A DNA stretch of 64,000 nucleotides from Marsupella aquatica (GCA_973895155.1 OZ316894.1:6410234-6474233); one strand, 5' to 3'; shown: positions 1 through 53,686, counted from the first letter of the stretch. Numbers and translations: made by a program. Notes: generated by a model not told the origin, from the letters alone.

Positions 1-1488
1 GAAATTAACAGAGTGGAGACACATGCAGGCCTTGAAAGATCCTGATATGATTTGCCCAGTGTTACAGAGAGTTCTTACTAAAGAACTCTCTTTACAGGAA
101 ATGGGTCACGAATTTACTCGACACAAATTTCAGATGCAGGTGCAGAAGGCCTTCCTCACGTGTCTACACGAGGAGAGTTGGTCAGGTTGTAAAACCAAGT
201 ACCCTGAGCATTGCACAGACAATGTGCTTAAGAATTTTGTACCTGTTTTCCAGACATGGGTAAGATTCTGTCACCTTTCTTCGAATGATTGTTTGAATTC
301 ATTTAATATTTGGAATCCTTGTTTCTAATTCTACAGTTCCTTTTTGTAGAAAGATACCACCTCCCGGAAAAAGAAGGGAGATGAGGAAGGCAAAGATCTC
401 AAGTCATTCCCGGACAAATTCAATGCGCATATTGTGCAAGCCCAAAATTGGCTATCCATGAAAACTTCTAGTCGGCAAACCCAAGAGGGGGAACTTCATC
501 CAAATTCGTTTGAGCATCCAGAGTTTGGTGATCACTATGATATTTTTACTTAAGATGCTCAGCGATTACATGAGGTGGTTCCGGGTCGGGCTTACACATT
601 AGCTTTAGTGGATATTCCCTACGGGTTTGCATTGCCTGGATGTCTTCATGAAGACACTATTGGATGGGGAACTGAGGAGATCACAAAAATGGTCCAATCG
701 TTCAAGGTGGCTACTACTGCAAAGTTGTGGCGTATTATCATTCACCACAGCCTTGACCAATATGAGGCCATCAAGACCGTTTTGAAAGCGGAGTGTAATG
801 GAGGGTTCCAGAATTGTGTGTGGTAAGAAATATTTGTTTTTGAAAAAAACAACTATTAGTTATTCATGATTTCATGAACCATGTTTCTCAATTTAAATAA
901 CTCCTTGACTTTTTGTGACTTTTCAGGGTTAAGGATAATGTGAAGAATGCTGGTGGACCAAGATTGAACAGCAACTTTGAGTGCTTTACAATTGGCTTTC
1001 ACAGCCAGGATGGTAAACGGTCATTGGAGCACTTCAATTTTGACACAAATGAATCAAGGAACAATGTGGTTGTATGCGCAGCTGTGACTAAGAAGCTGAA
1101 ACACAACGGGGATAACAAGGCAGTGAATGTTTATCAGAAACCACGTGCATTGTTAGATTGGGAAGTGAGTCATTTTAGTCAGGTTGGAGACTGGGTTTTG
1201 GATATTTGTTCAGGATCAGGGACTGGGACAACCTCCTCCTTGGCCATGGGGAGACATTGCGTTGCCATTGAGATTGACGAGCGACAGAGCAGTGTGTTGA
1301 AAGGGAGGATTCTTAACCTTGCAGATAACATTGAAGAGGAAGACGGACAGGGGGAGATGGATGAGGAGAGTGAGGAAGACATTCCTCAGGCCGGAGAGGA
1401 TAGCGTGGTTGACGATGCCACAATTGTTCCAGAATTGACGACAGGGACTTCCGGAACCGAGGAAGGGGAAGCGGTCCCTTTGGATTAG
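1..1488 (+). pseudogene. Beta-class amino-DNA methyltransferase (N6_N4_Mtase-like); 3' exons of a spliced gene with one in-frame stop
   Basis: Exons <1-259, 350-822 and 927-1488, joined by GT-AG introns that keep the frame. The catalytic motif LVDIPYG precedes CVWVK..E, QKPRALL and the SAM-binding motif GDWVLDICSGSGT, then CVAIEID; this is the beta-class order. In-frame TAA at 551-553; acidic C-terminal tail; 5' end lies outside the window. Confidence 0.85.
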
Positions 1489-1819
1489 ACTAGATAAATA
1501 GAGGGACTCGTAGCATTTGAAACCACTTGGGCTTAAGTTGGGTTATATTTTGTAAAACTTTGAGTTTGACTTAAACTCTGATCGATGAGTTTGATTTTGA
1601 TTACTTTTATAAAGTGCATATTTCAAGGTTTATACAATTGTGAGAATATCATATAAGATATGCTTAGATTTTGGTGGTAAAATTCTCTTGAGTCTAGTTT
1701 GGAAAATACATACCATTTTTTGGTGGTTTTTTGGTATACACTTTTTAATATCATGAAGATTTTGAAAAGAGAAATAAGGCTTTGGACTCATCCCTTAAGG
1801 CTTCTTGTTGTGGACTCAC

Positions 1820-2348
1820 CTGCAAATAGGTTTGTGGAGGACCGATGGGGTGACTTCAAGACAGACCCATATCATGTATGACTAGGTTTGGCATCAGATG
1901 GGATCAGCCCCTTTGCATTGGCCGGGAAGGCCCAACCATACTCAGTTTGGCCAGTAGTCCTTACAAATTACAACATCCCTCCATGGATGGCCATGAAGAA
2001 AGGTCATTTGCTGCTCTCAATGATTATCCCAGGCCCCAAGCAAGTAAAAAAGATTGATGTTTACTTGCAACCATTGTTGGAGGAGCTTCAACAACTATGG
2101 AGGGGAGTGGATTGCTATGATGGTCGAGTGCTGACGGGTGGTTTACCTCGTGAATTTAAATTAAAAGCCATCGTTATGTGGACCATACATGATCTTCCTG
2201 GTATGTTAAAATATACCTTCCCCAATATTATGCATGGTTTTTTATGGGAGATAATACACTATAGGATAATGTTATATATAAAAGTTTGCCTAGCTATTGT
2301 TTAATGTATTGATTGTGTGTGTTGTAGGGTTTGGATATATCTCTGGGT
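1820..2348 (+). pseudogene. Outer CACTA-type transposase (Transposase_21/Tnp2), 5' portion
   Basis: DPYHV*LGLASDGISPF..YSVWPVVLTNYNIPPW..PGPK..IDVYLQPLLEELQQLW..WTIHDLPG. Intron 2201-2327, then GFGYISG, which is cut by the CACTA insertion at 2349. Confidence 0.9.
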
Positions 2349-2369
2349 CACTAGTGGAAAATAGTGTCC

Positions 2370-3060
2370 TTAATGACTAGAATGAGGACTGAAAAACGAG
2401 TCATATGTACCAATATATGACTAGAGCTTTTCTGTCATATCTGCCTCGTCTTTTAGGACAGTCAATTAAGACAAATGACTAAAAATCTCACCAGTCATTT
2501 ATGGTAGTCCTAAATGACACAATATTTCTGAAATGACATGTTGTCCTAAATGACTAAATGAATGGCAGTCAGTCATTTAGGCATGTCTTTAATGACACAT
2601 ATTTAAACAAATCATATTACAACACGTGGCAACTACGCACGGTTGTCATTATATGTCATTTCAGACATGTCATAAATGACACAATAATAAATCATTTAAG
2701 GTGTCATTTAGTGTATCATTAAAGGTGTCGTACATGGTGTCATTAAAAATGTCATACAAGGTGTCATACAAGGTGTCATTGAGGGTGTCATACATGGTAT
2801 CATACATGGTGTCATTGAGGGTGTCATTGAGGGTATCATTGAGGGTGTCAAACAGGGTGTCATTGAGGGTGTCATATATAGTGTCATACATGGTGTCATT
2901 GAGGGTGTCATTGAGGGTGTCATTGAGGGTATCATATATGGTGTCATTGAGGGTGTCATATATGGTGTCATATATGGTGTCATTGAGGGTGTCATACATG
3001 GTGTCATTGAGGGTATCATTGAGGGTGTCATACAGGGTGTTTTTAAGTAATGTCATTTGG
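2370..3060. repeat. CACTA subterminal repeats: dispersed AATGAC/GTCATT motifs followed by a 12-bp tandem array (GGTGTCATTGAG / GGTGTCATAYAT)
   Basis: Roughly 28 12-bp units at ~2700-3040. They generate the spurious repetitive ORFs at 2670-3182. Confidence 0.9.
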
Positions 3061-3147
3061 GATGTATCTAAGAAGAGCTCATAGTTATATTCAAAATCAC
3101 ATACAATGAATCCACTTAAAACCTTAAACAAAGACATCACTTTGCGC

Positions 3148-5934: not shown

Positions 5935-8900
5935 TGTGATGCCTAGACAGGAATCACTCGGCCGGTTAAGTGGGTAAAGCAGGAAGGCACCCTAGGAACA
6001 CCTTAGTATAGGGACAAAACAAGGAAAATATAAACAATTAGGGGCAACCATGGAACCCGGGCAGAGGCCGGAGGTAAGGCTGAGGGTGAAAACCCGATTA
6101 GGGTTAGGGCGCGTTAAGCGTTGGCGGCTAGGAAGGATCAACGGGAAGAAGGACCGGCAGAGGAGAGGGGTAAGGAGCGCTTGCAGGAGATGGTGGCTCA
6201 TTTGCGAGCACGAACTAGGCAGACGACTACGGGAGGCCAACTACTGTCAACTGCTTAGGCAAGCACTCGGGGAGAGAATAGATACCGACGATCGACCTAA
6301 GGAGGGTATGAGCAACGTCAATCAAGCGGCACATTTCTGGGGATGCCTGTTCGAACGGGCAACTGAGTACATCAAGACTTACAAGGACGAGGAGTCAGAA
6401 AGGGCAGCTCGAGAACGGCAGGAGCTCGCTCGATTGTGGGAGCTACAGAAGACGGCTTTCTTAGGAGGCGAACTCATCAAGGACGAGTTCCTGTGGACGC
6501 CTACTTCCAATCAACTCGACAATCTTCTGTTTTGCAAAGACAGCGTCGTCGGCATCCGAGAGGCCATCAAGAACTGCAATGACATACACTGGGAATTAAA
6601 GGGTAGCACGGAAAGGTGGACCCAGGCAACGGTGCTAGGAGAAACCTCCACGGCAGCAGAGATGAAGAGGAAGGGGGCCGTCAACGATGAAGCCACCCCG
6701 GCAAAAAGAACGAGGTCGGCGGCACCAAAGAGGCCAGCCGAGCAGCAGAGCAGGAGGCAGGGAGAAGCCGAAGAGGAGGAGGTCGATCCCATCAAGGCCA
6801 TTCCAACCAGGGATGACACCTGGAAGGGCTGGGCGGCAACCCTACCGGTGGAGGTGCAACTACATTTTGCACGGGAGGAGGATGCATGCTTTACGGCCAT
6901 GCAGACCAAGAAGTACCAAGGCTTCATGGCCGGATCCGGCTTGGAGGCCTTTGTAAGATTACCATGGCTGAAGCCGGAGGTACCGGAGTCAGACCTATTA
7001 GAATTCGTGGGGTCATGGGAACCCGAGACCAATTGCACGAGGATATATGGGAAGGATTTCTATCTTACTCCCAAGGTAATTGCCGAAGTGTTTGGCTTGC
7101 CGATAGGCAATAAGACCAAAGTTGATACCAGGAAGACCTTGCCTGACAAGGAGTTCCGGTCGTTCCCCGGGCCATCAACGAAGAATGGCTTCTTCCGGAA
7201 CACCTGCACCAACCCGCACATAGGAGAGATGATCGACTTCTTGCGGGTGACCATGCATTGTAACTTGCCGAGGGCAGAGATCGGCAAGGCACAGGTCTAT
7301 CTGGTAGAAAGGCCAGACCCAAGCCGGGACTACAACGGGTACCTCCTCAACCAATTGAAGAAGATCTTAAAGGAGGAGCAGCAGGTAATTGGCATGGGGA
7401 GCGTGTCGCGGCTTGGCTATCACATGCCGCTGTTGTGCCGGTATGCCAGAGGTCAGACTTTTGCCCCGGTACTTCCCCTGCAGGTAAGGGCACCCGAGGA
7501 AGCTCCAACGCCAAGGCCGTTGGCTGAGAAGCCTCAACCACCTGTTAGTCCTACGATCGAGCAAGTGTTTAGGCCCAGGAAGGAAGACTTGCCGATGCAG
7601 CAACCAGGCATGCAGAGTCTGCTGAAACTACTGGAGAAAGAAAAGAAATCAGCATCGGCAACAACAACGGCAACGGCAACAATGCAGGACACTACTACAG
7701 AGGTAGGCCTACACCGGCTCACAAGAGAAAACCCCTTTGCTGGAGACAAGGAGAGAATCAGGCCGGAATCCAAGCCAGGTGTTCGAATGTACGTGGGAAC
7801 CTCAAGCTCCGAATCTGAGGCAGAATTGCCTGAAGCTCCTACCGACGAAGAGGAGAGGGAGAAGCCGGACGTCCAAGAGGTAGAGGAGGCAGTGGAGGAC
7901 TGCAGCCATGATAATTCCGGCTATGGGTCAGACCATCACGTTCCAGGAGTAAGGACCTGTGGCCGGTTTGTCCCCACACTTCCAAGGGTAGTGCGAGGGG
8001 ACCCCAACCAGCAAAGTAGCCCTGAGTCTCCCCCACCAGATGTTGCTCCCCCGAGCTTCGACGGCATAAAACAGACGGTGCAGGAATTTCAGGAGCGAAT
8101 CAAGCAGGAGGAAGAGGCCGCCCTGGCTAAGGAAAAGGATTTACCAGGAGGAGATTGGCCGGAGGACATCAGGCGGCTAGCCGAAAAAGGAAGCAAACCT
8201 CTAGCCACGATTGAAGAGATCCGCAGGACGGCTTGGGAGCAAAGGCCACGATGGGCGATGCCGATCACTTCTACTTACTCCACCTACGCTAAGAATAGAG
8301 CCATGGAGTATGGTGAGATGTGTGGGGAACTTGCGCTCGGCATCTTTGGAGAGGAGTTGGAGGTAGGACCCTTTTTCCATAGGGAGCAGTTGGAGAAGCA
8401 CCAATTAGAAGAAGCGGTGGCTTTAGAGAGAAGCAAGAAGGACGAGGTCATTCGGCGGCTTAGGAGGATGGAAGCCGAGATTGAAGATCTAAGGGCGGCC
8501 AAGAAAGCCCAAGATGAACTGCGGATTAAACGACATGAGCTGAACATCATGCAGGGGCAGTTGGACACCGCGCAGGCTGATAATCAGAATATCAAGGATA
8601 AACTAACTCAGACGCAGGGAGAGTTGGCCAACACGATCAAAGAGAGGGAGAAGTGGAAGCAAGAGCTGAAGAATACAGAGGAGGCCCACATAACAGCCAA
8701 CAGCCGGGCCATGGCGGAGACCCAAAGAAAGGAATGGGCGTTGAAAGGGGAGCTCGAGAAAATCCGCGGAGCCCTTGAGCAAAAGGAGGTCGAGTTAGGG
8801 AAATCCTATCAAGGGATTATGGCGCTGCAGCAGGAGCTTGCGTCCCTGACGGCCAGCTTCAAGACCGACCTAAGGGAGAAGGACGAGATGCTCGAACAGA

Positions 8901-9339
8901 CTTACGCCAAGATGAACCAGATGGAGTCTGTCATCATTGCAGAGCTCGACAAGGAGCTAAGAGCAACCCAGGAGGAGAGGGCTACCTTGAAGAAGGAATT
9001 GGAGGAAGCCCACAGGGAGCAGGAGGAGGCCAAAAACGAGCTGGAGGGGGCACGTAAGGACCTGGATGAAACCCAAGAGGAGTTGGAGGAAATCACGAGG
9101 AAGATGGAGAACCTACAGCGGCGGGCCGACAACCAAACAGAGCGGCTGAAGAAACAAGCCGCAGTATTTAAATGCTTAGCTGCAGCAGGTCCATCTCCCA
9201 TTGGGACAAACCAGTTACCAGGGGTGGTAATTGCCGAAGGACAAGCCGCGCCAACTGCACCAGTGCCGGAAGTAAGTGGGAAGGGGAAGGGACCAGCTAC
9301 CGAGCCACCAACGAAGAAGAAGCGGAAACCTTCAGGGTC
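5935..9339 (+). repeat. Inverted copy of the first 3405 bp of the element-B LTR (pairs with 16765-20169)
   Basis: Colinear reverse-complement match of about 99% by eye; the ORF translations differ at about a dozen residues. Confidence 0.97.
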
Positions 9340-9391
9340 CCCACTTAATTGTGAAGCGTCCTCGCGAACAACTTCATCTTCGTCCATATAG
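6050..9391 (+). CDS. LTR-encoded protein of element B, inverted copy (1113 aa, open frame, chimeric C-terminus)
   Basis: Uninterrupted ORF with a PMD-like core (IYGKDFYLTPKVIAEVFGLPIG) and a long coiled coil. The last ~16 residues come from the antisense strand of the integrase end. Confidence 0.75.
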   Translation: MEPGQRPEVRLRVKTRLGLGRVKRWRLGRINGKKDRQRRGVRSACRRWWLICEHELGRRLREANYCQLLRQALGERIDTDDRPKEGMSNVNQAAHFWGCLFERATEYIKTYKDEESERAARERQELARLWELQKTAFLGGELIKDEFLWTPTSNQLDNLLFCKDSVVGIREAIKNCNDIHWELKGSTERWTQATVLGETSTAAEMKRKGAVNDEATPAKRTRSAAPKRPAEQQSRRQGEAEEEEVDPIKAIPTRDDTWKGWAATLPVEVQLHFAREEDACFTAMQTKKYQGFMAGSGLEAFVRLPWLKPEVPESDLLEFVGSWEPETNCTRIYGKDFYLTPKVIAEVFGLPIGNKTKVDTRKTLPDKEFRSFPGPSTKNGFFRNTCTNPHIGEMIDFLRVTMHCNLPRAEIGKAQVYLVERPDPSRDYNGYLLNQLKKILKEEQQVIGMGSVSRLGYHMPLLCRYARGQTFAPVLPLQVRAPEEAPTPRPLAEKPQPPVSPTIEQVFRPRKEDLPMQQPGMQSLLKLLEKEKKSASATTTATATMQDTTTEVGLHRLTRENPFAGDKERIRPESKPGVRMYVGTSSSESEAELPEAPTDEEEREKPDVQEVEEAVEDCSHDNSGYGSDHHVPGVRTCGRFVPTLPRVVRGDPNQQSSPESPPPDVAPPSFDGIKQTVQEFQERIKQEEEAALAKEKDLPGGDWPEDIRRLAEKGSKPLATIEEIRRTAWEQRPRWAMPITSTYSTYAKNRAMEYGEMCGELALGIFGEELEVGPFFHREQLEKHQLEEAVALERSKKDEVIRRLRRMEAEIEDLRAAKKAQDELRIKRHELNIMQGQLDTAQADNQNIKDKLTQTQGELANTIKEREKWKQELKNTEEAHITANSRAMAETQRKEWALKGELEKIRGALEQKEVELGKSYQGIMALQQELASLTASFKTDLREKDEMLEQTYAKMNQMESVIIAELDKELRATQEERATLKKELEEAHREQEEAKNELEGARKDLDETQEELEEITRKMENLQRRADNQTERLKKQAAVFKCLAAAGPSPIGTNQLPGVVIAEGQAAPTAPVPEVSGKGKGPATEPPTKKKRKPSGSPLNCEASSRTTSSSSI

Positions 9392-12300
9392 TATTTCTTG
9401 AGGCGGTCATAATGGATGCGAACTGGATATACCTCTCCCGTAATGTTGGCCAATTGTACGGAGCCATTGGGGAACATCATGGTTACTCTAAAGGGTCCTA
9501 ACCAGCGAGTGTAAAGCTTTCCTGGAAACCTACTATACCTACTGTCATAAAGTAGCACAAGATCACCGGTATGAATACTAACTACTTTTAACCTTTTATC
9601 ATACTGCTGCTTCATGATATTCTGTCTATATTCTACTCTCTCGGCTGAAATCATTCTCGCTTCCTCTAAAGCTTCTAACCTATATTCTCGCTCCTTTAGG
9701 CTCTCCTCCGCTGAGGCTCTTTCCTCAATTGTAACTTGAAATGTCGGTATCTCAAGTTGCATGGGTACCAGGGCTTCTTGTCCAAAGGTTAAGAAGAAGG
9801 GTGTATGACCGGTAGTGGATTTATAGGCAAGATTGTAAGCAAAAACAGCAGCAAACAATTTATCATCCCAATCGAGTTTGTTCTGAGCTACTGTCTTGTT
9901 CAATATCTTTCCTATGATTCCGTTTGCTCATTCTGTCAACCCGTTTGCCTTTGGATGGTAGGGAGTAGTAGGCCTATGTTTAACTAAATACTGCTCATTT
10001 AAACGACTAATTATATCATTCAAAAAATGGGTTCCTCTATCACTAACTAATTCTAGGGGTGCTCCATACCTGGTGAAGATCTGCTCATACATGAATCTAG
10101 CCATCGTAATTGCATCATCCTTCGTTGTTGGTCTGGCCTCTATTCATTTAGTTGCATAATCCGTAGCCAGGATTATATACTTGTTCCGTCGAGGGTGGGT
10201 CAGTGGTTTCAGAGGTCCAATGTAATCAATACCCCACTTCTCGAATGGTGCCAGAGGTAGAATAGGGTGCAGTGGATGCCTGGTGGACGCCCTTGGTCCT
10301 CCCGCTCGTTGACAAGGATCGCATTGTTTGATAAACTGATAGACATCTTTGTGCAAGGTGGGCCACCAGTAACCGGCATTTAATATCTTCTTAGACGTGG
10401 TTACTGGGGCAAAATGTCCTCCGGCCTCCTCTCCATGCATGGCCCGTAGGACTCGTTTTACCTCTCTCTTTTCCAAACATCTTTGAATCGTGCCGTTGAT
10501 TCCATGCTTGTGCAGTATGCCTTTAATGCACTGATACCGTCTGACCTTCCGCACAAAGACTGCGGCTTGCTCTCGGCTTAATCCTGGCTGTAATCTGGAA
10601 GTGCTGAGAAATTGTAAAATCTCAGGGTACCATGTACCAGCTATTTCCACAACGAATAGCTCCTCGTCGGGGAATCGATCATCAATGCAATCCGTGGCAG
10701 GTTTACCTGTGATCCTTGAAAAGAAGTCGGCATTGGCATGTAACTTTCCCGGCTTGATCCTCAGCTCATAGTCAAACTCCTGTAATAGCAAAATCCATCT
10801 TGCTACTCTGCCTGTAAGGTCCGGCTTATTGACTAGGTACTTCAAACTTTCATGATCAGTATGAAAGATTACCTTGTACCCTAGTAAATAATGCCTAAAC
10901 TTTTTACAAGAATAAATGACTCCTAATGCTTCTCTTTCCGTGGTAGAGTAGTTCCGTTCGGCATCGGCAAGCTGACGGCTTGCGAAGTATATGGGATGGT
11001 CCCTTCCTTTCTCATCCAACTGACTTAGTACTGAGCCAATACAGAAGCCCGAGACATCTACAAAAACATGAAAATCTTTGTTCCAGTCCGGTGCTATCAT
11101 GACTGGGGCCTCTACTAACATCTGCTTCAATTCTACCACCGCTGTGACTCGTTCGGGTGTGGGTTCGAAGTCTGCTCCTGCCTTGAGCATATTGGTTAAT
11201 GGTAAAGCCAGCTTGGCAAAATCCTTGATGAACCGGCGATAGTAACCAATGCATCCCAAGAAGGATCTTACATCCTTTATGTTCTTAGGTTGCATGATAT
11301 CTAGCCATACTGCTAGCTTACCTTTGTCAATCTCAATGCCCTTCCTTGATACCTTGTGACCTAGTAGCACCCCCTCGGTTACTGCAAAAAAACATTTATC
11401 TGGGTGTAACTTGAGACCCACCTCTCTACATCTCATGAAGGTTTTCCTGAGGTATTTAGCATGTTTCGATGCCTTCCCGAATACTGCAAAGTCATCAATG
11501 AAGATTTCCATGAACTTTCTCAAGTAATCATGAAAAATGTTCACCATTAATCGTTGGAACATAGCTGGTGCGTTGCAGAGTCCAAACGGCATACGATTGA
11601 AGACATAGATCCCCCATTCCGTGATGAAGGCCGTCTTGATTTGGTCTTCCTGCCGAATCCTGATTTGGTTATAACCAGAGTATCCATCCATGAATGAATA
11701 TAGTTCATGACTGGCTACCATGTCTAGTACCATATCAGTAAACGGTAAAGGAAAATGGTCTTTTAATGTTGCTTCATTCAGCTTCCTGTAATCCTGACAA
11801 ACCCGGATCTTGGGTTTACCATCGGGTCCAGCTTTCTTGGGAACTATCACAATTGGAGACACCCAGTCTGAATGCAGGACTGGAGTGATGAATCCAGCTT
11901 CCACTAGTTTGTCGATTTCTGTTTTGACCAGCAGGGAATACTTCGGGTTCATCCTTTGAATTGGTTGTCGAAATGATTTGGCTCCTAACATGAGATCAAT
12001 TCGATGTTCCCCTAGTGTTGGATCTACTCTCTTTAGATCTTGGTGACTCCATGCAAACACATCCTGAAATTCAATCAATAAGTCACTGATCTCTTTCTCG
12101 AGCTCAGGTGCTAGGTTTCTCCCTAAGTTCAGTTCTCTTCCCTCTCCTAAGTCGAGCTTCCGATATTGCCATGCTTGGATCATATTAATCTGCTTCTTCA
12201 AATTCGGGTCCAGTTCGGCTTCCAGTCTCTCTAATCTCATACCTCCATAAACTAGGATCTCGGCTGGACTAGCCGAGTCGGTCCCTTCCTTGGTGTCCAT

Positions 12301-15488: not shown

Positions 15489-15532
15489 TACCTACGCTTC
15501 CGTTCTAACTTCATATCTCACGGCTTAAGAAA

Positions 15533-15553: not shown

Positions 15554-15557
15554 AAAA

Positions 15558-34547: not shown

Positions 34548-34617
34548 TAGGGAGGGAATGGATGCGGGTAGGGAGGGAACGGACGCGGGTAGGGAGGGAA
34601 CGGACGTGGGTAGGGAG
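34548..34617. repeat. 21-bp tandem repeat near the CACTA right end
   Basis: TAGGGAGGGAACGGACGCGGG about three times. Confidence 0.8.
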
Positions 34618-35455: not shown

Positions 35456-35800
35456 TAGAGACCTTATCCGGCTTGGAGCGTGTAGCAAGAAGTGGGACTT
35501 TCTAGTTACGAATACCAAGTCATGGGCTAGCCTAAAACAAGCAAACCGGATGGTCGATAACGCAAATGACGCACTTTCCTACATACTCGGGACTAAGGAT
35601 TTGGAATTTGACTCAGTCTGTCGAGTTGTTCGACAGGATATTTCTTTGCTCCCATAAATACCCATTCTTGGGACTACTAGTTGCGGCGATGTGTTATTAT
35701 TTAGTGACAAATATGACTGTTTAGACGAAGAAGAGCGAGTTCTTCTAGTCGAAAGGTTTGGTACATTTACTCAGAGTCTTGGTGGTTCTAGTTCCTGATG
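35456..35800 (+). pseudogene. 5'-truncated F-box-like ORF
   Basis: DLIRLGACSKKWDFLVTNTKSWASL parallels DLIAIQTVSKKWHHIVTYSSTWATV in the next ORF. Confidence 0.5.
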
Positions 35801-35873
35801 GACAGGTTCCCTTTCTTAATCTTTTCCATATGATGTTGCAGTCCTTTGACATGAATCGAAATCTCATCGTCAA

Positions 35874-36363
35874 ATGATGATGGATCGAATTGCAAGTGCA
35901 AAGGTTATAAATCAAAACATGATATGGAGTGATGCAGAAGCACTGATACCTGGCCTCCCGAACGATATTGTCGAGAAATATATTTGGCCTTTAGTCAAAG
36001 TGTTTTTCCATTTCGCTTGGGAATTTGTCAGATAATGCGATTAAAAAACGGGCCATGGACTTGATCGCCATTCAAACAGTCAGTAAGAAGTGGCATCACA
36101 TAGTTACTTATAGTAGTACTTGGGCGACGGTCACCTTGGTAGCAAACGATTTCATCGATAGACCTAGATATGAATCGCTTGGAAGGCATTTGACTGCACG
36201 GAATGTAGCATTTAGATATAGAGAATCTATCAAAATTCTTCCACCTCTGGACATTCTTGGTGGTTTTGATGGGACCGAGCTTGACACGTTTAGAAACCAT
36301 TGGATTTGGTTAGATGATAAGGAGCGAAAGGATTGGGTCAAGAAATACGTTCCTAAAATGTAA
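35874..36363 (+). pseudogene. F-box-like protein (frameshifted)
   Basis: ALIPGLPNDIVEKYIWP in one frame, then ..VSKKWHHIV..W in the next; this is the plant F-box signature LIPGLP.D..VS+.W. Confidence 0.65.
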
Positions 36364-36574
36364 TTTGGGGCAACGCGACCATGCGCGTGCTTCAATTTTT
36401 CCGTCGCATAGTTATTGATAGATATGGATTTTGACGAGTTGACCTCAAGGAAAGAAACCATTCGGTTTGATTAGATGATCTTCAGTTCCTAAAATGTAAT
36501 TCAACGCGATGCGACCATGCGCGTATTGTCATTTTGAAATAAAGGTTTGACTTTCAATATTTGTATTTTTCAGA

Positions 36575-39500
36575 ATGGATCCAATGGTGACATCAAAGCG
36601 GAAAAGAGACTCCTCTAAATTGGTTGCTCAAAAGAAAGCCAAGACTATCTAGTGATGCCCACGCAGACATCCATTCTTGCTTATCGAGGAAAATCTATCA
36701 GGGAGAGAACAACGGAGACAAGGACACTCCATCTCTTTCACTTGACAAAGATAACCAAACTTGGAATAATTGTTCAGAATGGGAGTCTCCGTCTTGTGGT
36801 TGCAAAAAATGAGAAGGCTACAATTTTGGAGAATTCAAAAATTCTTGGGTGCTTCTTTGAGAAGAACTTGAGTGTTCAAGAGTGTACTGAGGGATTGGTT
36901 CTGTTAGTTAGCGATGATAACCAAGATGACAACATAAGCATATGTTTGGATCGCACACAATATGTGACCTTCAATCAGAGGAGAATTGATGATCTTCTAG
37001 GTGCTAGGCACACCTTGGAAAAGGTTACTAGTGTGGGATTCCCCTCCAATCCACGGGGATCAACTGGTGATTTGATTTGTCAATATATTATTGACGTCCT
37101 TGAGTTCAAGAGAATTCCTTTTAAGAAGGAATTTTGCTTGGGAAAGCCCATTCCAGTGATCAAGGCTGAAACATACACGACGGAGAATCTTCCGAAAGTT
37201 ATCACCGCACAGAATGTCGGTGCTCTGTTCGATAGTTTCCTCAAGGAATATAGTGCTGTGAACATATTTAACAGCAAGTCCTTTTTAATTGAGACTTTGC
37301 GTTGTCATCTCACACCGGATCACATCAAATGCCAAGAGTGGAATCAGGATTACACTGAGAGGCTGAAGAATTCACTCCTCTCTCATTCGGCTATAAAGTT
37401 TGAGAAGAGATGCTACTTCTTAGTCCCTGTAAAGTGGGTTCAGTCCGAAGCCGACAAAATTGCCGACTACAATGGAACGGCCTACGAATCGGCGCCAACA
37501 GAGGAGGACATTAAGAGCAGTCATTTTTGGATACTCGAAGGCCAGCACACAATAATGGCCTATAAATTGCTGAAAGACGACGCTAATGTCAGCCAAGATG
37601 TTCGAGATGCATGCGGGACAATAGAAGCTATCATGTTTTGGGCAACGCTCAATAACGAGAATAATATCCATTTGATGGGACTGTCGAGGGCCCTAAACCA
37701 CTATCATCAAACATCCATGGAAGAGGGGCAATTTCTAACCATCGTCAGACAGTGTCGTAATATCTGGAACTCATTTGGTCGGCCTGGATCACATTCTCAT
37801 CATCCTAATTGGAAGGTATGGACCAAACCCTTGTCGATTATATTCTTACAGATTTATGCATTACATTGTCTTACAGATATATGCATTACATTTTCTTACA
37901 GATTTATGAAGTTAATTTTGTCATGCAACTGGGCGCGTCAATCTTAGAATTGTTATGCTCCTTTGTTATCTCATTTTCCAGGTATTTATGACGGCTACAA
38001 GTTTAGTCTGCCCATGGGTGCAAATGGGCAAAAACGAGGTAATGAAATTTGGAGAGTTGGCTCCGTTCCTCTTTACCATGGAGGACGAAACATTCAAGAA
38101 GTGGATGGAAGTTTATGAACTTTCAAGGAAAGGAGAGCTTGTTATATACAATGGAATTTTGTAGAAGCAGATCCTCAAGGTTGCGGAGAATCCAAATGCT
38201 TTTCATCTTCTTAAGAAGTCATTCCGTTCTTGTCAAGGGTGCTCGGACAAAGTTCTTCGAAAGGCAGCGGAATACATGTTGAGTGGGAAATTGTCTATTC
38301 TCAAAAACAGAAGCATCAAAGCGAAATCCGCGAAGGCTATGAAGTCCTCTGAAGCCCTAGTGGTGTCAACAACCGGTAAGAGTTTGGAGGAATTCTATGT
38401 AGAGAAGAAGACAAAAGTTGAGTTTGAGATTCTTTTGTTGAGTAAACTCAATAGGGATACAGGCACCCGGGCCGAGCTGAAAAGTCTTACCGACGCCGCC
38501 CAGAAATTGTGGGTCCAAGGAATGATTGATCGCTTTAAGCTCAACAAGATGGTACTGAAGCAGTTGAGAGATGCGCTGAGTGATTATCTGAAGAAGTGCT
38601 TAAATGTACATATTAGTAATGATAATTTGTCGAAAGAGATCGACCCGATATTCCACAGGTTAGTAGAAGGAATACAGAAATCGATTGATAGTCAAGGAAA
38701 CCAACTAGTGCGGCCGGTCGGTGAGAGGCTGAAATTGTGATCCCTACAGGATATACAAAAGGCGGAGTTTGCAGATTGTATCATACGTGAAGACAAGAAC
38801 CTTGCGAGCTTGATTTATTTTGATTCCTCATCAATGGGAGAGATGCGTCCATCAAATTGCGCATTCTATGAGGGGTTATTCCGTGCTACTAGCGAAATAG
38901 GGGCCAAAACACACCATGTGGTTATTATTGTGGCCACTCCCATTGAGTCTTATTTAATCAAATGGGAATTAGTGAAATACACATAGTACATTGCTGTGGA
39001 TAGCAAATATATTCAGAAGCGGCAAAAGGAAAGGAAGCTTATTGTAACATACGCCTTTCAAAGTTTGGCCTTCAGCACAATGGGCGACTCGGATGTCCTT
39101 GAGCTCCAATTGTTGTCCAAATATCAGATTGAGAAAATAACTGATTTTGAAGAGAGTGGCGAGATATCGACGACTTTGCCAGAAAAGATGCCTCCATTCT
39201 TTGAAAGTATTGTTAGTCAATTCGTCCAATCTGGGGAATGGGCTATATGCTTCGGCAAAGGAAAGAATTTGATCTAGTGCCTAATGGTAAGTTCTTAGAT
39301 TTACATTGTGGGGTTTAGCTTTTCAGATGATTTGGATTTCAAACTATCAATTTATATTGGCCGAACTAATTTCTGTTTCTTATTTTACAGGATGCTGGAT
39401 CCAATGTAAAATATTACTGCCCCATAACAACGCACGGGGAATTGTCTTGTTTCTTACGGGCTAGTATAGAAAAATGTATAGATAAACTAATGAAGTACCG

Positions 39501-41544
39501 TCCATCCGTATCTACTCTCAAGGCTGATGTTTTGGAAGTCCTCCAAGAACAACATATTCCTGATCATATTTGTTATCAATTATTGCAAGACTATAATTCC
39601 CTCTCGGAAGATTCAGATAGAATGTACATTCGGCCAACAGAGTACCCTTGTGGGCCAATCCAAGGTAAATTTCTATCAAACCCTACAATTGCTTCTTCTG
39701 CATAACAAAACATTGTCGAGCTTCACGCGAACATGCGCGTGAACATTGTTTTTACTGTGTATTATATTTATTTATATATTTTATTTTTGTCAGATGAAGT
39801 CCACAGTGGCTTTACTGGTGAGGACGAAGTGAACGACGGGCATGGGGACGTCAATGACGACCAAGATTCGGAGTGGATGACTGAGCCGCAGAACGATGTC
39901 GATGATGATGACCAAATCAAAGAAGAGAGTGACGATGAGGAAGCGGATGAAATTGATGAAAATCAGCAAGTTGATAAATTTGACGAGGGGACTGACGAGG
40001 ATATAGCAGGGTCCGACGAAGACATGGAGGTTGCGGATGATGAGGCCAGACAAGAGGAGGCGGCCCGGCTAGAAGCGGTGAGACAAGAGGAGGCCCGAGA
40101 AGAAACGCTTAGACTAGAAGCGTCCCGACAAGAGACTCAAAAGGTGGAAGCCAAGAAGCAAAAGGCGGCAGCTCAAAAGGCAGCTTCCGCAAAGAGGAAG
40201 TCAAGAGCTTAAGCGGAGAGAGTTGAGACAGCCAGACTTCAAGCAGAGGCATTGGCAGAGGCAGCGAGAGTCCAGGCTGTGGCAGAAGCAGAGAGAGAAG
40301 TGGCCGATAGGGTGGATGAGGATAGGAGGCAGGGCCAGACAAGAGAGGAGGCCGAGAGCGAGGAGGAGGAACCGACAGGACAGGAGGCCAAGAGCGGGGA
40401 GAAGGAACCGACAAGACAAGAGGCTGAGAGTAGGGAGGAGGAACCGACAAGACAGGAGGTCGAGAGCGAGGAGGAGGAACCCACAAGAAAGGAGGCCGAG
40501 AGCAAGGAGGAGGAGAGAGAAGAGTCGCAGAAGATGAAGGCAGAGAGGGAGGAGGCGGAGAGGGCGGAAGCGGAGAAGACGGAAGCGGAGAGGGCGGAAG
40601 CAGAGAGGGCGGAAGCAGAGAGGGCGCAGGCCAAGAGCAAGGAGGCGGCAAGGATGGAGGCCAAAAAGAAGGAGGCCGAAAAGAAGGAGGCCAAAAAGAA
40701 GAAGGCGGCCGAGAAGAAGAAGGAGGCCAAAAAGAAGAAGGCGGTCAAAAAGAAGAAGGCGGCCGAAAAGAAAAATGAGGCCGAGAAGACAAAGGAGGCT
40801 GAGAAAAAGGAGGCCGAGAAGAAGGAGGCCGAGAAGAAAGAGCAGGCTGAGAAGAAAGAGGCTGAGAAGGAGGCTGAGAAGAAAGAGCAGGCTGAGAAGG
40901 AGGCCGAGAAGAAGGAGTAGGCTGAGAAGGAGGCCGAGAAGAAGCAGGCCGAGAAGAAGGAGTAGGCCGAGAAGAAGGAGGCGGAGAAGGAGGCGGAGAA
41001 GAAGGAGCAGGCAGAGAAGGAGCAGGCCGAGAAGAAGGAGGCCGACAAGGCCAGGGACCTTTCGCTTATTCCTGAGGCAAACCGATTACCTAAAATAAAG
41101 CTCAATTTGAGGAAGCCTTCATCGCCGTCCGCTGGAATTAAGAAGAAAATATTAGACTATTTTCTGCGTCCGGACTTTGAGTTTGACGATCCACCATTAG
41201 GTATAGTCTCCTTGGAGGATTGGAATAAATATTCACCCGAGCTGCTACGTGTCCAGGCAGTTTTGGCTATGCATTACTGGAAGGGTGTTCTGATTACAGA
41301 GGAGACAAGTACAAGTCAATCGAGACTAGAGACGATTACCAATAATGTACGATTTTCTGAGAATCGAGTGGAAGAACTGGGAACGGAGTTGGCTCCCGAA
41401 TCGGCTCAAATTGTGAAGAGACTAAAGTTTGACTTCACGCAAACGGGTTCGTGGTCTCGGCCACGATATAACCCAGAGACTACACACTCGGAAGGCCTCA
41501 TTCACAATTGGAGGACCCAAAAGGAACGTCACACTCAAAAGTGA
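36575..41544 (+). pseudogene. Multi-exon gene: ParB-like domain, decayed amino-MTase-like domain, acidic region and E/K/A-rich repeat tail
   Basis: FWILEGQHTIMA is ParB/DGQHR-like. EKMPPFFESIVSQFVQSGEWAICFG aligns with QKPRALLDWEVSHFSQVGDWVLDIC of the MTase at 1-1488. Several stops and frameshifts. Confidence 0.6.
40040..41050 (+). repeat. Coding tandem repeats (RQEAESEEEEPT, EAERA, EAEKKE)
   Basis: GAGGCCGAGAAGAAG-type units; CAG>TAG stops at 40918 and 40963. Confidence 0.85.
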
Positions 41545-42123
41545 CCATAGTTTATTATGCTTTAGGATATCATTTGTAGGGTGTAATGAGATGATATAGA
41601 AAATTTGATGTACTATACTTAATAAATATCCTATAGGTTGGTAACATTCATTAAACTATCTAGCATTTGAAACTTTGAAGATTTCCTTATATGTCCTTCA
41701 AAGATTGATAAAATGACTTGTCACTCAACGAGTCACATCATTTCAGGACTCAAAAGGACTCTAAAAAATGCATTTTAGACAATGAAATTTTACCAAAGCA
41801 TGCATACTAATAGAATAATTCTATATTTCAAAACTCAAATACTGACACACACTAAACCTTTATGTACAGGACAAAAATAATCAGTAATTTTGGCTTATTT
41901 GGGGCCAACAATAATAGGATCACTTAAAACAGTGAAAAACTTGATTTATTTACATGGTGAGGTAGGTTACACCATGTAAAATAATCTTGTGAAAATATTA
42001 GAGTTAAATGTCTTCAGATAAAATCATGGTGAAGCTTTTTTCACGTTACAAAAGTCATTTTTCACTAAAAAAACATGTTTTTGAGTCCTGAAAGTGGTTC
42101 TTGTGAGGTACACCCAATTGTGA

Positions 42124-43350
42124 ATGAGGCCGGAAGCCCAACCAAAGACTGGCGAAGCGGATATTGCGGAACCTGATTTGTCAGACTCACAGATGGTCGA
42201 ATATCTAAATAAACTACCACAACCATTCGAAGGTCTTCCCGCCTCATCTCTCCAACCTTCACAAACCGGTCCGGTGGATCGATCACTACGCTCCCGGGGA
42301 GCTCCTAGCGATGTAGCTGCGAAGGAGGCACCCAAGAAATCCGGTGCAAAAAGGCCGGATCCACCCAATCCAAAGGTCATTCGCAAGCTATAAGTTGAAA
42401 GGATTTTGTTTCTAGTCTAGCAGCCAGTATTTTCTTTGTTGTTAGGGTTTTGGACCTATCATTATATTTTATTATTGATTTATTGTTGTTTCTGTTTACT
42501 CGTAGGCTACAACCTTAGTACGTTATTTGAAGGCGTATTGAATTCTCTGTTTTTTTGCAGTTTTTTGAAAATTTGGGTAGTCGAATAGATCAATGCCTCG
42601 ATCCTTCTAGGGATATGGAAGAGGTATTGACCAAGTTTTTACACCACTCGATCAAGAGGAAACATATGATGTGTCTGAGACCACGCGAGTGGCTTACCGA
42701 TGATATAATTAATGCTTATTTGAGCTTTCTTGAGCTGATTCTCAATAGAGTTGGAAAATCAGAGGTTGTAAAATTCTTCGAAACACACCATTTTGAGCTT
42801 CTCTCCATGGATCCTACCGTTTTCGATGAGGACCGAGCATCTTGGACAGCTAACTTTCCGTTAAGAATCAGTCAATACGACAAACTAGTCTTTCCAGTTC
42901 ACATTGTTGGGCAAGAACATTGGTCATTGGCAGTTGTCTATCCAAAGGAGAAACGATTCGAGTACCTGGATTCTCTAGTTCAAAATCGACAAAATCCTAA
43001 GGTGCTCGATGTCGTTGGGCAGTATTACGTCGATAAAATTCTATGGAGAAATGGAGTCAAGGTGGATATATCAGGTTGGGAATGGATATATCGGAATGAT
43101 ATTCCACACCAAAGTGACGGGTACAGTTGTGGTGTTTTTACGTTGAAATACGCCAAGTGTTTGTGCCAAGGCAGCGAAATTAGTTTCTCCGCTACAGACA
43201 TTGAGAAATTCCGTAGGGAAGTTGTCTTGTTGTTATATGACATGGACTTCCAAAAGCCGGTGTCCAGAGACAACCATGGTACCCATACGTGCTGCTATGA
43301 TTGATATTGCTGGCGGAATTCAATTGCTGAACGACCATCTTCTTGGGCAG
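42124..43350 (+). CDS. Ulp1-family (C48) SUMO/Ubl protease, spliced
   Basis: LRPREWLTDDIINAYL, PVH...EHWSL, YLDSL, HQSDGYSCGVF: the His-Asp-Cys triad and oxyanion Gln are all present. Confidence 0.92.
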
Positions 43351-43511
43351 GTAATATACTTCATTTCAGTCTCTCTTTATAGTCACGTGACCGTTCGCGT
43401 TATAAAACTTATTTTTCATTTTCTAATGTTTTACAGAAACCTAGCCCAAAACCCCCTGATCAAGTAAAGAAGGCACCAGTAAAGAAGGCACTAGTAAAGA
43501 AGGCACCAATC

Positions 43512-44376
43512 TTGAAGTCCGCTGATTTTCCGGAGGCGGGAAAGACCTTGGTAGAACTGGCTCCAAATCCTTCGGCACAGAAATCACAGGTACAGACGAC
43601 GCCTAATCCATCGGCGCAGAGGCCACTGGTACAGAAAGGTCCGGTAATTCAAATGAAGAGACTTGTAATTTTTGACCTGAATCGGGTACTTATCTGGTCA
43701 GAGCAAAGCAGCCCTAGGATGCCCATTCGATCAAGGAGTGTCAAACACATGCACAAGGTTTTCTATCCAAGGCCTGATTTAATGACATTTCTTGTGAAGG
43801 TGTCAAAACTTTACGACATTGCCATCTGGTCGTGTATGTTGAAACAAAATATTCTATCATGTGTAAGGCTGATTCTCCGACCCGAGGTTTTGAGCCGTAT
43901 TAAATTTATCTGGGGACAAGAATCAACACGACCTATTGGTAGGAGTAATAATGACATTCCCCTATTTGTCAAATGTCTCTCCGACATTGCCGTCGATATT
44001 AAGGATTACGACAAGGAGAATGTGATTATTATGGATGACGCTGCTTATAAGATGAGCTTAAATAGCTTCTTCTCGTCTATGTATCCCGACGCGTATTTTG
44101 GGCTGGAAGATGACACACATTTTCAAAAAAAACTATATCCGTATCTGTGCGATATATTCAATCCGAAGTTGAAATTCCATGAGCGACTTCAGGGATATGG
44201 TATTCCAAATTTTTCTTGAGACAATCTTCAGAAGGATTATATTGATAAGGCGAATCTTTGGAGGAAAAATGTGACCATTCGTACTCAGGGTAATCCTGAC
44301 CATTTATGAGAGTTTGACGATTTCATGAGAAGATTATCAAATAGTAAAGACCGTGAAATGGAAGCCAAAGAAAAGT
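43512..44376 (+). CDS. FCP1/NIF HAD phosphatase-like domain 1
   Basis: LVIFDLNRVL, PRPDL..FL, IAIWS, FIWGQ, FVK.L, VIIMDDAAYK. Stop at 44217-44219 is possibly premature. Confidence 0.8.
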
Positions 44377-44624
44377 AAACATTTATTTATTTATAATTAT
44401 TATTTATACTTTTGACTTTGTGTGTTGTGCGTGACGCGCCCGGTCGCGTCGCTGTGTGGATTTTGTCATTTATTTATATTGTTATGTGAGTATCGTGTCG
44501 GGTGGCGTGGTTGAATTGATTGCATAATATGAGAATTGAACTATGGATACAATAGTCACGTGACCGTGCGCGTGTAAACGTTCGTCTTTTACTTATATTT
44601 TTAAAATTTGTGTGTTATGTTTAG

Positions 44625-45370
44625 GGGTACGTTAATATGAGAATCGAATGGTTGATTTATAGGAGACTAAGTGGAGTAGATCGCGTCAACTTCTAGTTTT
44701 AGGAGTGGAAAACTTTCTATGCTATATTAAGAAATATACTCCTGAGCTCAAGTGGACTACGGCAATTCGTATCGGATCTCTATGTGTCGTTCCGAGGCCA
44801 TATCTTCATGATTTTCTAAAATTCTGTTATGATAATTTTGATGTGATGGTTTGGTCTACCCTCGAGGATAAACTGGTTTATCAAATACTTTCAGAAATGT
44901 TTTTGATCACGGACCTGTCGCAGCTGAGATATGTTTTCACCCAGGATCATTGTTGGCATCTTGGTTATGTGAAGAAATGTTATAAGAGAGTTGTCTTCAA
45001 ATCTGTGGACAGACTACGTGATATGTTTCAAGATTATCGACCAGAGAATATAATCCAGATTGATGCCCGTCCATCCCATACATGCCAGATAGGTGTATGT
45101 GGATTGTTGTTTACAAAGACGTTTCAAGGATCCTTGGATGATGTCTTTTTGAGGGATACTCTCATTCCACATTTACGGAAGCTATCAGATTCCGGGCTTT
45201 GTCTTGCGTTCGCTAACAAGTTGGATTATCCTATCTGGTCGATTAGAAATCTACATCTAGATTGGACTTTGAACGAGGATATATGGGAATATCTGTACGT
45301 GCAGAGACATGCTGATCAAGTTCTTATGAAGTACTTCAACAGACGTCACTTATCAAAGGCCAGAGTGTAG
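44625..45370 (+). CDS. FCP1/NIF-like domain 2 (catalytic motif lost)
   Basis: LLVLGVENFL, PRPYLHDFL, FDVMVWS, YVFTQDHC, VFKS, NIIQID. Confidence 0.75.
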
Positions 45371-45462
45371 AGGATATGTTATTTGTCTGTAAATCCGTGA
45401 CGCGACTATTCGCGTGGCAACATCCATACGGGCTCATTTATCTTGTATTGTGTTTCTCTACA

Positions 45463-46160
45463 GGAGATACATTGTAGCAGAGAAACTCAACTCATAGTTT
45501 TAGATGTGGAGCATCTACTCTGTTACACTGCACCGCATTCCCGACTGATGGCGGTCTCAACTGGAATTCGTATTGGGAATGTATACGTTTTTCCAAGGCC
45601 TTATCTTCACGAATTCGTGAGATTCTATTTTGAGAATTTTGACGTAGGGATCTGGTCATCTCTTAAGAAGAACCTTTTAGATCAGATTTTAGCATCTATT
45701 TTTACTGCGATGGAAATGGCCTCATTTAAGTATATTTGGGATGAGTCTCATTGTTACTTATGCGATGGGGCGACCTCAAATAAGCGGATATTTTTGAAGT
45801 GTTTTGATAAAGTTGAAAGTTATACGAAGGCGTATCTGCAGAAAAATATAATGCTTATCGAATCCGATGCATTTCATGCTTGTTTAGATCGATCCTGTTT
45901 TTGGATCATTATTTCCGCCCAAATATTATGGGTCGGTCGACGACTATTTCCTGATTAACGTGTTGATTCCGTATCTTAGCAAGCTCGCAAAATCTTCTGA
46001 GCCGCTTCTCGTTGCCAATGGAAGAGGTTATCCTAATTGGTCAGTTAAATCTCTTTTTAGAGATTATGATTATAATCATACTATATGGGAAGACCCTTTG
46101 ATTCAGAGGCATGGAGATAGATATCTAGTATCTGAGCAGTTTAACAGACGCCCAATTTAG
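45463..46160 (+). pseudogene. FCP1/NIF-like domain 3 (frameshifted)
   Basis: LIVLDVEHLL, PRPYLHEFV, FDVGIWSS, YIWDESHC, FLK; paralog of domain 2 with a frameshift near 45900. Confidence 0.72.
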
Positions 46161-46519
46161 GACACTTCCGAAATAATATTCGGCAGGAGTTCAGATTAAT
46201 TGGTATTGTCGTGCTAGAAACTATTTGTAATCTCCCTAAATGGGTTATCATATATAAAGGATCTTAGAGATTTATTTCTCTAGTTTTATTATTCGTTGTC
46301 TGTTGGTCCCGTCAAGTTGGATTGCGTCAAATCTTAGTGTTGTTAAAATGTGATGTTGCAGTCATTTTCAGGATATCACGCACAGCGACATGTCGCCCCC
46401 TTTTCTTATCATTTTTTAAGCGTGGTAATCGGAAGCGTTGACAGGCAATTGCTGTCATATTAAAATAATAATATTTAGGTATTTTCGGAATTTCCAAAGT
46501 TTGGTTTTCCTTAAATTGG

Positions 46520-46700
46520 GGTTTAATGCTCTGCCGCTCTTATGGTTTGATATTCCTTGACACTCGTCTAGAACCACCCTGTACCATTGTATTTGCTCCA
46601 GCAAGGAGGCAATATCTCTTTCGTTTTCTTGGGTTTTGGCTCCACAAGAATAAGAGTGGCGTAAGTTGTAATTATAACATCGTATATATGATTTCAAGTG
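46520..46700 (-). pseudogene. SNF2-family (RAD5/RAD16-like) helicase fragment
   Basis: SLLEQIQWYRVVLDECQGISN matches the W.R++LDE..I.N Walker-B context. Confidence 0.6.
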
Positions 46701-46996
46701 CTTTGACTCCATACATCTATTCGATGCGTGAAATATTAGCACTTTTACATTTGCCTTTGCAGTAGTTTTAGTGGTAATCTCATATTTCCACTGAGTCAAA
46801 ACACCTCCAAGACAAACAATAAGGGTCTAGGACCTGCTTCTGGGTGGTCGACGGGGCCACAATGTGATTATCATCCGCAAGTGAAGGAAACATTCAAGCA
46901 GCCTGGGAAAGTAGCCGAAGGGGCCCGGAGAGCCCGAAGATGAGTTATAGCAAAAAAACCCCACCCAGGGCCGGGATCACCCGGCCTAGTCCCAGA

Positions 46997-53680: not shown

Positions 53681-53686
<6 letters not shown>

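Follow-up and report, generated by a model that had tools for sequence, protein, structure and literature searches.

Do the methyltransferase, transposase and chromatin-related genes that lie close together in the genome of Marsupella aquatica belong to one giant cargo transposon, or do they derive from several? We address this in a 64,000-nt stretch of that genome (GCA_973895155.1 OZ316894.1:6410234-6474233), referred to throughout as the window. An initial annotation had read positions 1-46800, once nested insertions are removed, as a compact gene cluster and as one large mobile unit encoding its own DNA-modification, deSUMOylation, ubiquitin-adaptor and C-terminal domain (CTD) phosphatase-like functions. 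Domain scans, breakpoints and read depth indicate instead that 1-46800 is a patchwork of broken transposons, and the single mobile unit does not hold in the form in which it was described. Two units can be told apart in this patchwork, a bacterial-type methyltransferase gene at 1-1488 and a multicopy gene cassette at 35451-46450, each with a predicted ParB-type protein and each with a palindrome of its own. We consider the chance that they are two elements to be a little better than even. Both are dead at this locus, where the window copy is a relic, and a self-recognition mechanism based on the two palindromes is put forward tentatively below.

Breakpoints and repeat nature of the cassette

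The genes of the region, which carry GT-AG spliceosomal introns, and the transposon pieces between them are arranged as follows.

2-1488, + strand: METHYLTRANSFERASE, the 3' part of a spliced beta-class amino-methyltransferase gene (exons 2-259, 350-822 and 927-1488)
1813-2348, + strand: left part of a Tnp2 (Transposase_21) fragment, starting mid-domain, with an intron at about 2201-2327
2349-35024, - strand: nested CACTA element with CACTAG termini and a GGT target duplication at 2346-2348 and 35025-35027, containing its own Tnp2/DUF4218/DUF4216 gene, an open reading frame (ORF) with PHD fingers and nested Ty3 sequences
35028-35450, + strand: right part of the Tnp2 fragment, breaking off at 35451, before DUF4218
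35451-35798, + strand: F-box-like gene 1, the first half of its F-box gone, fused to the Tnp2 piece
35910-36363, + strand: F-box-like gene 2, frameshifted here, with a 1-nt difference in other copies at 36011-36015
36574-39667, + strand: spliced ParB-like gene with a GQH motif (GGQH in relatives), an unassigned C-terminal part and several stops in the window copy
39794-41544, + strand: acidic and Lys/Glu-repeat ORF with three internal stops, its C-terminal part likewise unassigned
42531-43304, + strand: Ulp1/SENP-type protease, frame open, His-Asp-Cys triad and oxyanion Gln present
43437-44219, + strand: NIF/FCP1-like domain 1, reading DLN, nearest solved relative UBLCP1
44663-45370, + strand: NIF/FCP1-like domain 2, reading GVE
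45464-46160, + strand: NIF/FCP1-like domain 3, reading DVE, with a frameshift near 45887 in the window copy
46458-46851, - strand: internal fragment of an SNF2-type ATPase gene

With CACTA termini, a 3-bp target duplication and a Tnp2 transposase, the inserted sequence at 2349-35024 is a CACTA/EnSpm element with exact ends and GGT on both flanks. The empty site of this insertion is crossed by related Tnp2-family contigs in two (X3 and X4) of four public runs (X1-X4, from two studies), the contigs of which were aligned on window positions 34500-54400 only, at 85% likeness. On either side of the insertion both halves of the annotated Transposase_21 were recovered by Pfam, at 1882-2301 (profile positions 32-134) and 35003-35455 (profile positions 137-198), and together they amount to a middle piece of about 1 kb, broken on both sides and devoid of the N-terminal part and of DUF4218. 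Homology to the Tnp2 of the nested element begins at about 1813, some 360 residues into the protein, and ends at 35451, before DUF4218. At 35451 Tnp2 gives way to the latter half of an F-box, and it is here that three X1 contigs depart from the window into other sequence. As both Tnp2 junctions are mid-gene breakpoints, the order methyltransferase, Tnp2, F-box is not a native compact arrangement, and the compact cluster has to be given up.

The cassette to the right of this breakpoint is a repeat family. With read depth taken as a rough guide and not as copy number, 14 of the 17 bins over 35164-46451 in X1 lie at a depth of 359-1289, and the remaining three (83-177) span 39148-41139, mainly a low-complexity repeat; the flank has a depth of 20-29 over 48444-51099 and of 7-8 over 51764-53091. 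The contrast between cassette and flank is repeated in X2-X4. Copies of the cassette are numerous, roughly in the tens, and 85-99% alike, which bears out the earlier view that these are mobile or repeated sequences rather than single-copy host genes. Contigs join 42913 to 46336 (from Ulp1 to the region after NIF domain 3; X1, X2 and X4), 44449 to 44633 (between NIF domains 1 and 2; X3), 45380 to 45497 (between NIF domains 2 and 3; X3 and X4) and 46386 to 46458 (from the region after NIF domain 3 to the SNF2 piece; X4).

The region as a whole is a nest of decayed transposons in which the cassette copy is damaged. Three of its lesions, the frameshifts near 36011-36015 and 45887 and a stop at 38738, are missing from most or all of the other depth. 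Among the 40 best-supported differences listed, 33 fall in the cassette stretch, and 22 of these 33 are T/A in the window and C/G elsewhere, with eight in CpG, a bias indicating that the window copy decayed, probably under methylation. Both borders of this copy are breakpoints. Its termini were not found in the window, as had been noted before, and no CACTAG end lies near the border at 35451 or at 46450. A 1869-nt contig of X1 (depth 110) matches 46524-46851 only, which suggests that the window copy is cut inside the SNF2 gene and that the right terminus lies elsewhere. A GC-rich hairpin and the CTAG behind it (46966-46990) were examined as a possible Helitron-like or right terminus, which is not supported, since the contig of the family departs from the window at 46851. 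The hairpin is followed by a tandem duplication of about 100 nt (46988-47190, 89%), just past the window's exit from the repeat family.

Pfam scans of the window ORFs, in sets of 142 and 42 (184 in total), support several of the cassette genes that had been named. The Ulp1 protease matches Peptidase_C48 (PF02902) at 42531-43301 (E 1.2e-25) as well as SENP1 (E 3e-20) and, with its triad intact, looks like an active SUMO protease. The minus-strand SNF2 fragment is confirmed as well (46458-46826, E 1.2e-7, profile positions 54-145 of 290). The two F-box-like ORFs are paralogues of each other (score 102; 0 of 1000 shuffles), and both fall under the Pfam cutoff, the first with positions 19-44 of the 47 in PF12937 (E 0.18) and the second at E 0.009. 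The three FCP1-like domains are NIF domains (E 3.5e-12, 9.5e-11 and 5.1e-11). DxDxT is the catalytic motif of FCP1/SCP CTD phosphatases, and DxDxT/V was found in none of the three; the CTD-phosphatase activity that had been proposed is not sustained, and the domains are predicted to be pseudo-phosphatases. No Rfam match was found in the window.

Predicted ParB-type genes in the two units

The methyltransferase domain reported at the left of the window is present as an N6_N4_Mtase match at 919-1485 (Pfam, E 1.6e-8). A DIPY motif at 611-622 precedes the S-adenosylmethionine (AdoMet) motif DICSGSG at 1201-1221, and this order, DxPY N-terminal to an FxGxG-type AdoMet motif, is that of the beta-class amino-DNA methyltransferases (PF01555). 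The frame is not intact, with one in-frame stop at 551-553. The solved structures nearest to the enzyme are MboIIA, RsrI, DpnA and CcrM, with N4-cytosine enzymes lower, and its motif favours N6-adenine. It is probably N6-adenine-specific, a judgement to be read with the published warning that the specificity of PF01555 domains has switched repeatedly (PMC8885841).

A full HMMER search returned 410 relatives at E<=0.001. Among 30 proteins looked up, 16 carry no organism and 14 are named, from Chara braunii (4), Riccia sorocarpa (4), Adiantum nelumboides (3), Calypogeia fissa (2) and Ginkgo (1); the family has dispersed paralogues in Chara, Riccia, Adiantum and Calypogeia and a single member in Ginkgo. 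Accessions from Calypogeia, Riccia, Chara and Adiantum include CAM6129466.1, KAL3696720.1, GBG86584.1 and MCO5606960.1. The nearest named relative is P0001 of the liverwort Calypogeia fissa, 67% identical over the last exon, and the window enzyme is sister to Calypogeia fissa (support 99/92) in a 43-row tree, for which coverage of 170 or more of the 231 profile positions was required and 42 of 165 proteins qualified. A census of the 43 rows gave 22 DxPY, three other D-motifs, two non-D motifs and 15 unparsed rows, with no SPPY among the 28 parsed. No SET domain (PF00856) occurs in 30 members of the family or in the window ORFs, and a scan of prokaryote genomes for relatives with context was blank.

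A metagenome scan added four short loci (L001-L004) from 355 pattern matches. All four have the three intron positions of the window gene and share 59-77% protein identity with it over the main exons. L003 and L004 hold the whole gene, and the domain that precedes the part present in the window folds as ParB. The model of this N-terminal domain from L003, with a predicted local distance difference test score (pLDDT) of 81, matches Noc/ParB in Foldseek (E 4.6e-5) and PadC with Z 9.6 (root-mean-square deviation 3.1 over 99 residues), and consists of a ParB/Srx fold followed by a helical domain, at only 12-18% identity to bacterial ParB-type proteins. Given that the full-length relatives carry this domain upstream, the window enzyme is predicted to be a ParB fusion whose ParB domain lies upstream of the window.

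The cassette gene at 36574-39667, which had been described as ParB-like with a dead methyltransferase, is ParB-like by profile comparison. When compared with the N-terminal domain of the methyltransferase family, 36652-37815 gave E 6.4e-5 at a probability of 64%, with the G-x-H motif aligned. The gene has no Pfam or PHROG match, the methyltransferase-family profile finds no match to it in six frames, and its predicted fold is uninformative (pLDDT 39). The dead methyltransferase was not confirmed: the C-terminal part scores 2.0 bits against the methyltransferase, compared with 6.7 for the best shuffle, at an HH probability of 17.5%, and resembles the AdoMet-binding end over 34 columns only. Sequences related to the ParB-like and NIF genes survive in other samples at 39-48% identity, and length-limited searches returned Logan proteins only, 3 of 2110 candidates for the ParB-like gene and 2 of 1265 for NIF.

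In the ESM Atlas, fungal DUF3723 clusters ranked top for L003 1560-2582 (0.96) and for window 36652-37815 (0.82, as a lead only), a ranking which hints that DUF3723 is ParB-like. The Pfam scan gave no DUF3723 match at E<=1, and a literature search combining DUF3723 and ParB found nothing. DUF3723 is an accessory gene of Starship elements; no Starship link is claimed here.

Palindromes, CpG retention and the number of elements

Two palindromes and a short non-coding block bear on the relation between the units.

864-877, no strand: palindrome A, TCATG-N4-CATGA (14 bp), in the last intron of the methyltransferase gene
1773-1812, + strand: non-coding end-like block, common to L001 and L002, about 250-300 nt past the stop
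36373, 36509, 39725, 43385, 44434, 44558 and 45400 (span 36373-45415): palindrome B, ACGCGA-N4-TCGCGT (16 bp)

Palindrome A is kept in the same intron in all five loci (the window and L001-L004), 43-61 nt before the acceptor, within introns that have otherwise diverged, and the remaining 62 kb of the window contain no exact match. Further sites precede the gene, two in L003 and three in L004, and in L003 a single spacer variant is found at all three sites, upstream and in the intron. In L004, an unassigned ORF at 1-690 on the - strand, divergent from the ParB-methyltransferase gene, has one exact copy and one copy with one mismatch within its coding sequence, and may be the next gene of the methyltransferase element.

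Palindrome B is the one that the initial annotation had taken to be shared by the non-coding gaps of the whole cluster. It is real in the cassette, at seven sites, and has none in the methyltransferase and transposase part (1-2348). All copies, including an extra one with three mismatches at 37923, lie in introns or gaps. At up to two mismatches the window holds seven, all within 35451-46850 (null mean 0.14, maximum 3 of 300), and the looser pattern CGCG-N5-8-CGCG is observed four times where 0.27 are expected (0 of 100 shuffles). Palindromes A and B are thus mutually exclusive between the methyltransferase unit and the cassette.

The units also differ in CpG content. The observed/expected ratio is 0.88 in the cassette, 0.77 in the single-copy flank, 0.73 in the Ty3 region, 0.48 in the methyltransferase, 0.35 in the Tnp2 piece and 0.25 in the nested Tnp2, and retention in the cassette differs from that in the methyltransferase (Fisher p 0.001) and in Tnp2 (p 1e-4).

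A CpG content like that of unmethylated DNA, and the fact that no terminus was found, might also be expected if the cassette were the remnant of an endogenous large DNA virus or an amplified host segment and not transposon cargo; SNF2, NIF, Ulp1-like and methyltransferase genes do occur in large DNA viruses. This we regard as very improbable. No virion, polymerase or packaging gene was found among the 184 ORFs scanned, none of five viral contig scans (exact-pattern scans of low sensitivity) found a relative, and the cassette has spliceosomal introns, a SENP-like Ulp1 and numerous copies 85-99% alike. The cassette is most likely the cargo of a large DNA transposon, possibly of the CACTA element whose Tnp2 piece a deletion has brought next to it.

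On the breakpoints, the private palindromes, the CpG contrast and the end-like block, we prefer two elements to a single one with two deletions. The block at 1773-1812 adjoins the Tnp2 breakpoint, the L001 contig ends there, and resampling the 342-nt tail equalled its score in 2 of 2000 trials; it is a candidate right end of the methyltransferase element. Read on the other strand, it starts with CACAA in the window, CACTA in L002 and CACCC in L001, out of register, and the other end was not seen.

A rather less probable account is that of one giant CACTA-type element holding methyltransferase, transposase and cassette, the copy in the window having lost the transposase at its 5' and at its 3' side through two internal deletions. 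All parts are on the + strand and adjoin one another once the nested element is removed, ParB-type proteins are encoded on both sides, and the junction at 35451, being mid-gene, fits a deletion better than an insertion. Plavaka elements of 17-19 kb hold both a PF01555 methyltransferase gene and a ParB gene (10.1101/2025.02.11.637652), and giant elements of Ectocarpus often have pseudogenised transposases (PMC12477816). The depth of the Tnp2 piece is likewise of the same order as that of the cassette; equal depth was dropped as evidence of linkage, since the end of the unrelated nested CACTA element has the same depth. The account requires two deletions that both end within Tnp2, and the mutually exclusive palindromes, the different CpG signatures and the conserved end-like block at the junction of methyltransferase and Tnp2 speak against it. 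Furthermore, L002 shows no Tnp2 or cassette homology over about 500 nt past the stop, nor do L003 and L004 over 0.6 and 1.7 kb before the start codon, a weak test on such short contigs.

Under the preferred reading of two elements, each of the two ParB-type genes has a private palindrome dispersed across its own unit. This suggests family-specific self-recognition, in which each unit's ParB-type protein would recognise its own palindrome. ParB-type proteins bind short palindromes as dimers. In the methyltransferase unit, a ParB-type dimer would load at TCATG-N4-CATGA near the promoter and in the intron, and would bring the DxPY enzyme, probably writing N6-methyladenine (6mA), onto the element's own DNA. 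In the cassette, the divergent ParB-type protein would load at the ACGCGA-N4-TCGCGT sites, at or near which the SUMO protease, the F-box-like adaptors, the dead NIF domains and the SNF2 ATPase could act to blunt host silencing; the retained CpGs of the cassette would be the footprint of this effect. The likely outcome of such loading would be that element DNA is marked or shielded. For either unit, palindrome binding, DNA methylation and anti-silencing are predicted activities. Extended to the giant DNA transposons of streptophytes, from Chara to liverworts, ferns and Ginkgo, the proposal is a tentative one: a ParB-parS-like self-recognition in which ParB at its own palindrome may write 6mA or may recruit SUMO protease, F-box adaptors, pseudo-phosphatases and SNF2 against methylation.

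Several observations weigh against this interpretation. The consensus of palindrome B was derived from its own sites, and CpG retention is not specific to the cassette, as the Ty3 sequences keep CpG too (0.73). The ParB assignment of the cassette gene is of moderate probability (64%). A chance site at 723 outscores the end-like block at 1773-1812, the terminal bases of which are out of register with L001 and L002, and L002 has further inverted repeats beyond it. Read depth neither ties Tnp2 to the cassette nor separates them, the end of the nested CACTA element having a depth of 517 at 34954 in X1. The cassette contigs are short, the listed pieces being mostly under 400 nt, and none spans the cassette, so that its long-range order is only partly shown; they reveal neither a further full-length copy nor a flank or target duplication.

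Several palindrome sites lie near splice acceptors, which leaves room for a role as RNA hairpins: four of eight B sites are 58-68 nt before an acceptor predicted by a crude pattern, and A is 43-61 nt before its own. The architecture could then be as described and the cargo passive, with the palindromes acting as RNA hairpins or as sites for host transcription factors and with neither self-marking nor anti-silencing, a view with which the catalytically dead NIF domains would agree. We think it improbable. In L003 and L004 there are A sites ahead of the start codon too, and in L004 within a further ORF; the ParB fold is a palindrome-binding fold, frames seem intact at several positions in other copies of the cassette, and the 39-48% identical relatives of its ParB-like and NIF genes have persisted.

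Related systems and the rest of the window

Self-recognising helper genes of the ParB/methyltransferase kind are already published for giant algal transposons (PMC12477816, 10.1101/2025.02.11.637652). In Ectocarpus, the 21.5-kb Sola1-1_Ec32 encodes a ParB-like domain fused to an N4/N6 methyltransferase on a giant DNA transposon, proposed to bind and modify its own element, and Iyer et al. 2011 is cited for similar proteins in green and red algae (PMC12477816). That element, compared here by description, is from a brown alga and has a Sola transposase, and the passages on it mention neither a palindrome specific to the element nor a cassette of Ulp1, NIF or F-box genes (PMC12477816). The giant Plavaka/EnSpm elements of Bostrychia, which are mobile between transposon families in their gene content, combine a gene of the PF01555-SET type with a ParB-oxygenase gene and arrays of inverted repeats (10.1101/2025.02.11.637652). 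Their PAG cassette resembles the present case in its giant EnSpm-type carriers, PF01555 methyltransferase gene, ParB-domain gene and inverted repeats; there, however, the methyltransferase is fused to SET, ParB is joined to a putative 2-oxoglutarate oxygenase and the repeats form tandem arrays (10.1101/2025.02.11.637652), whereas the window family has ParB on the methyltransferase itself, no SET, single dispersed palindromes and a classical Transposase_21 piece.

The Arabidopsis VANDAL/VANC and Kaonashi Ulp1 elements share with the cassette element-specific non-coding motifs and a transposon-borne Ulp1 domain (PMC5735166, PMC13317346). Sequence-specific escape from methylation has been shown for VANDAL/VANC (PMC5735166, PMC13317346) and is inferred for the window elements. 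VANDAL elements are Mutator-type, belong to eudicots and act through VANC proteins (PMC5735166, PMC13317346), whereas the candidate binder in the window is ParB-type; no Mutator domain was found among the 184 window ORFs scanned, and no search aimed at VANC was made. MpDN4MT1 of Marchantia and N4CMT of bdelloid rotifers are, like the window enzyme, eukaryotic amino-methyltransferases of the bacterial beta-class type, and one is a liverwort protein (10.1101/2021.02.12.428880, PMC8885841). These are SPPY N4-cytosine host enzymes without ParB (10.1101/2021.02.12.428880, PMC8885841), whereas the window family is mostly DxPY, ParB-fused and present in several copies. ParB-linked methyltransferases are also known from phages (PMC4738411), and phage records match only the methyltransferase part of the present family (best 26% of the query). 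With bacterial ParB, Noc and KorB, the L003 model shares the ParB/Srx fold followed by a helical domain, and the family differs from them in its 12-18% identity and in having no ParA. The parS and NBS palindromes are of the size of the 14-16 bp palindromes seen here.

A literature search that reached few subscription papers and no supplements found no report of the ParB-methyltransferase family in streptophytes or land plants, and none of a cassette joining ParB, Ulp1, triple NIF and F-box genes. The locus and its relatives extend the ParB-methyltransferase family to streptophytes and provide two concrete, family-specific candidate binding sites, with which the self-marking idea becomes directly testable. 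Were the proposal true, plants would have another anti-silencing system besides VANC and independent of it, and land plants a source of adenine methylation directed to specific sequences. Should the enzyme write 6mA, this source would be transposon-borne, and few such enzymes are recorded in land plants (PMC4738411).

Within the nested CACTA element, an ORF at 30799-31683 on the - strand, upstream of the transposase, contains NSD-type PHD fingers (PF22908, E 2e-8) and is a second case of chromatin-reader cargo. A subterminal 12-nt tandem array of the element lies at 2632-3095. An inverted duplication of 3405 nt (5935-9339 and 16765-20169, 99.3% identity) carries in each arm a coiled-coil-like ORF of more than 1000 amino acids with no Pfam family, and its arms flank a minus-strand Ty3 gag-pol at 10147-15242. 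Inverted 24-nt repeats resembling primer sites occur at 15533 and 22414, and no direct-repeat pair of long terminal repeats was found; the arrangement at 5935-20169 reflects either nested opposite Ty3 copies or an assembly artefact.

To the right of the cassette, a very high-copy small element lies at about 47325-48100. Depth in the bin 47116-47779 is 10,000-55,000, the flanks that adjoin 47325 are many and varied, and imperfect terminal inverted repeats lie near 47326 and 47690. A probable single-copy host gene at about 50040-51090 on the + strand is plastocyanin-like (PF02298, E 0.028, below the cutoff) with a short C-terminal repeat. The left end of a third CACTA element occupies 59284-64000; it is 75% like the right end of the nested element, and shows tandem arrays of 83-nt and about 575-nt units and a strong depletion of CpG and CHG.

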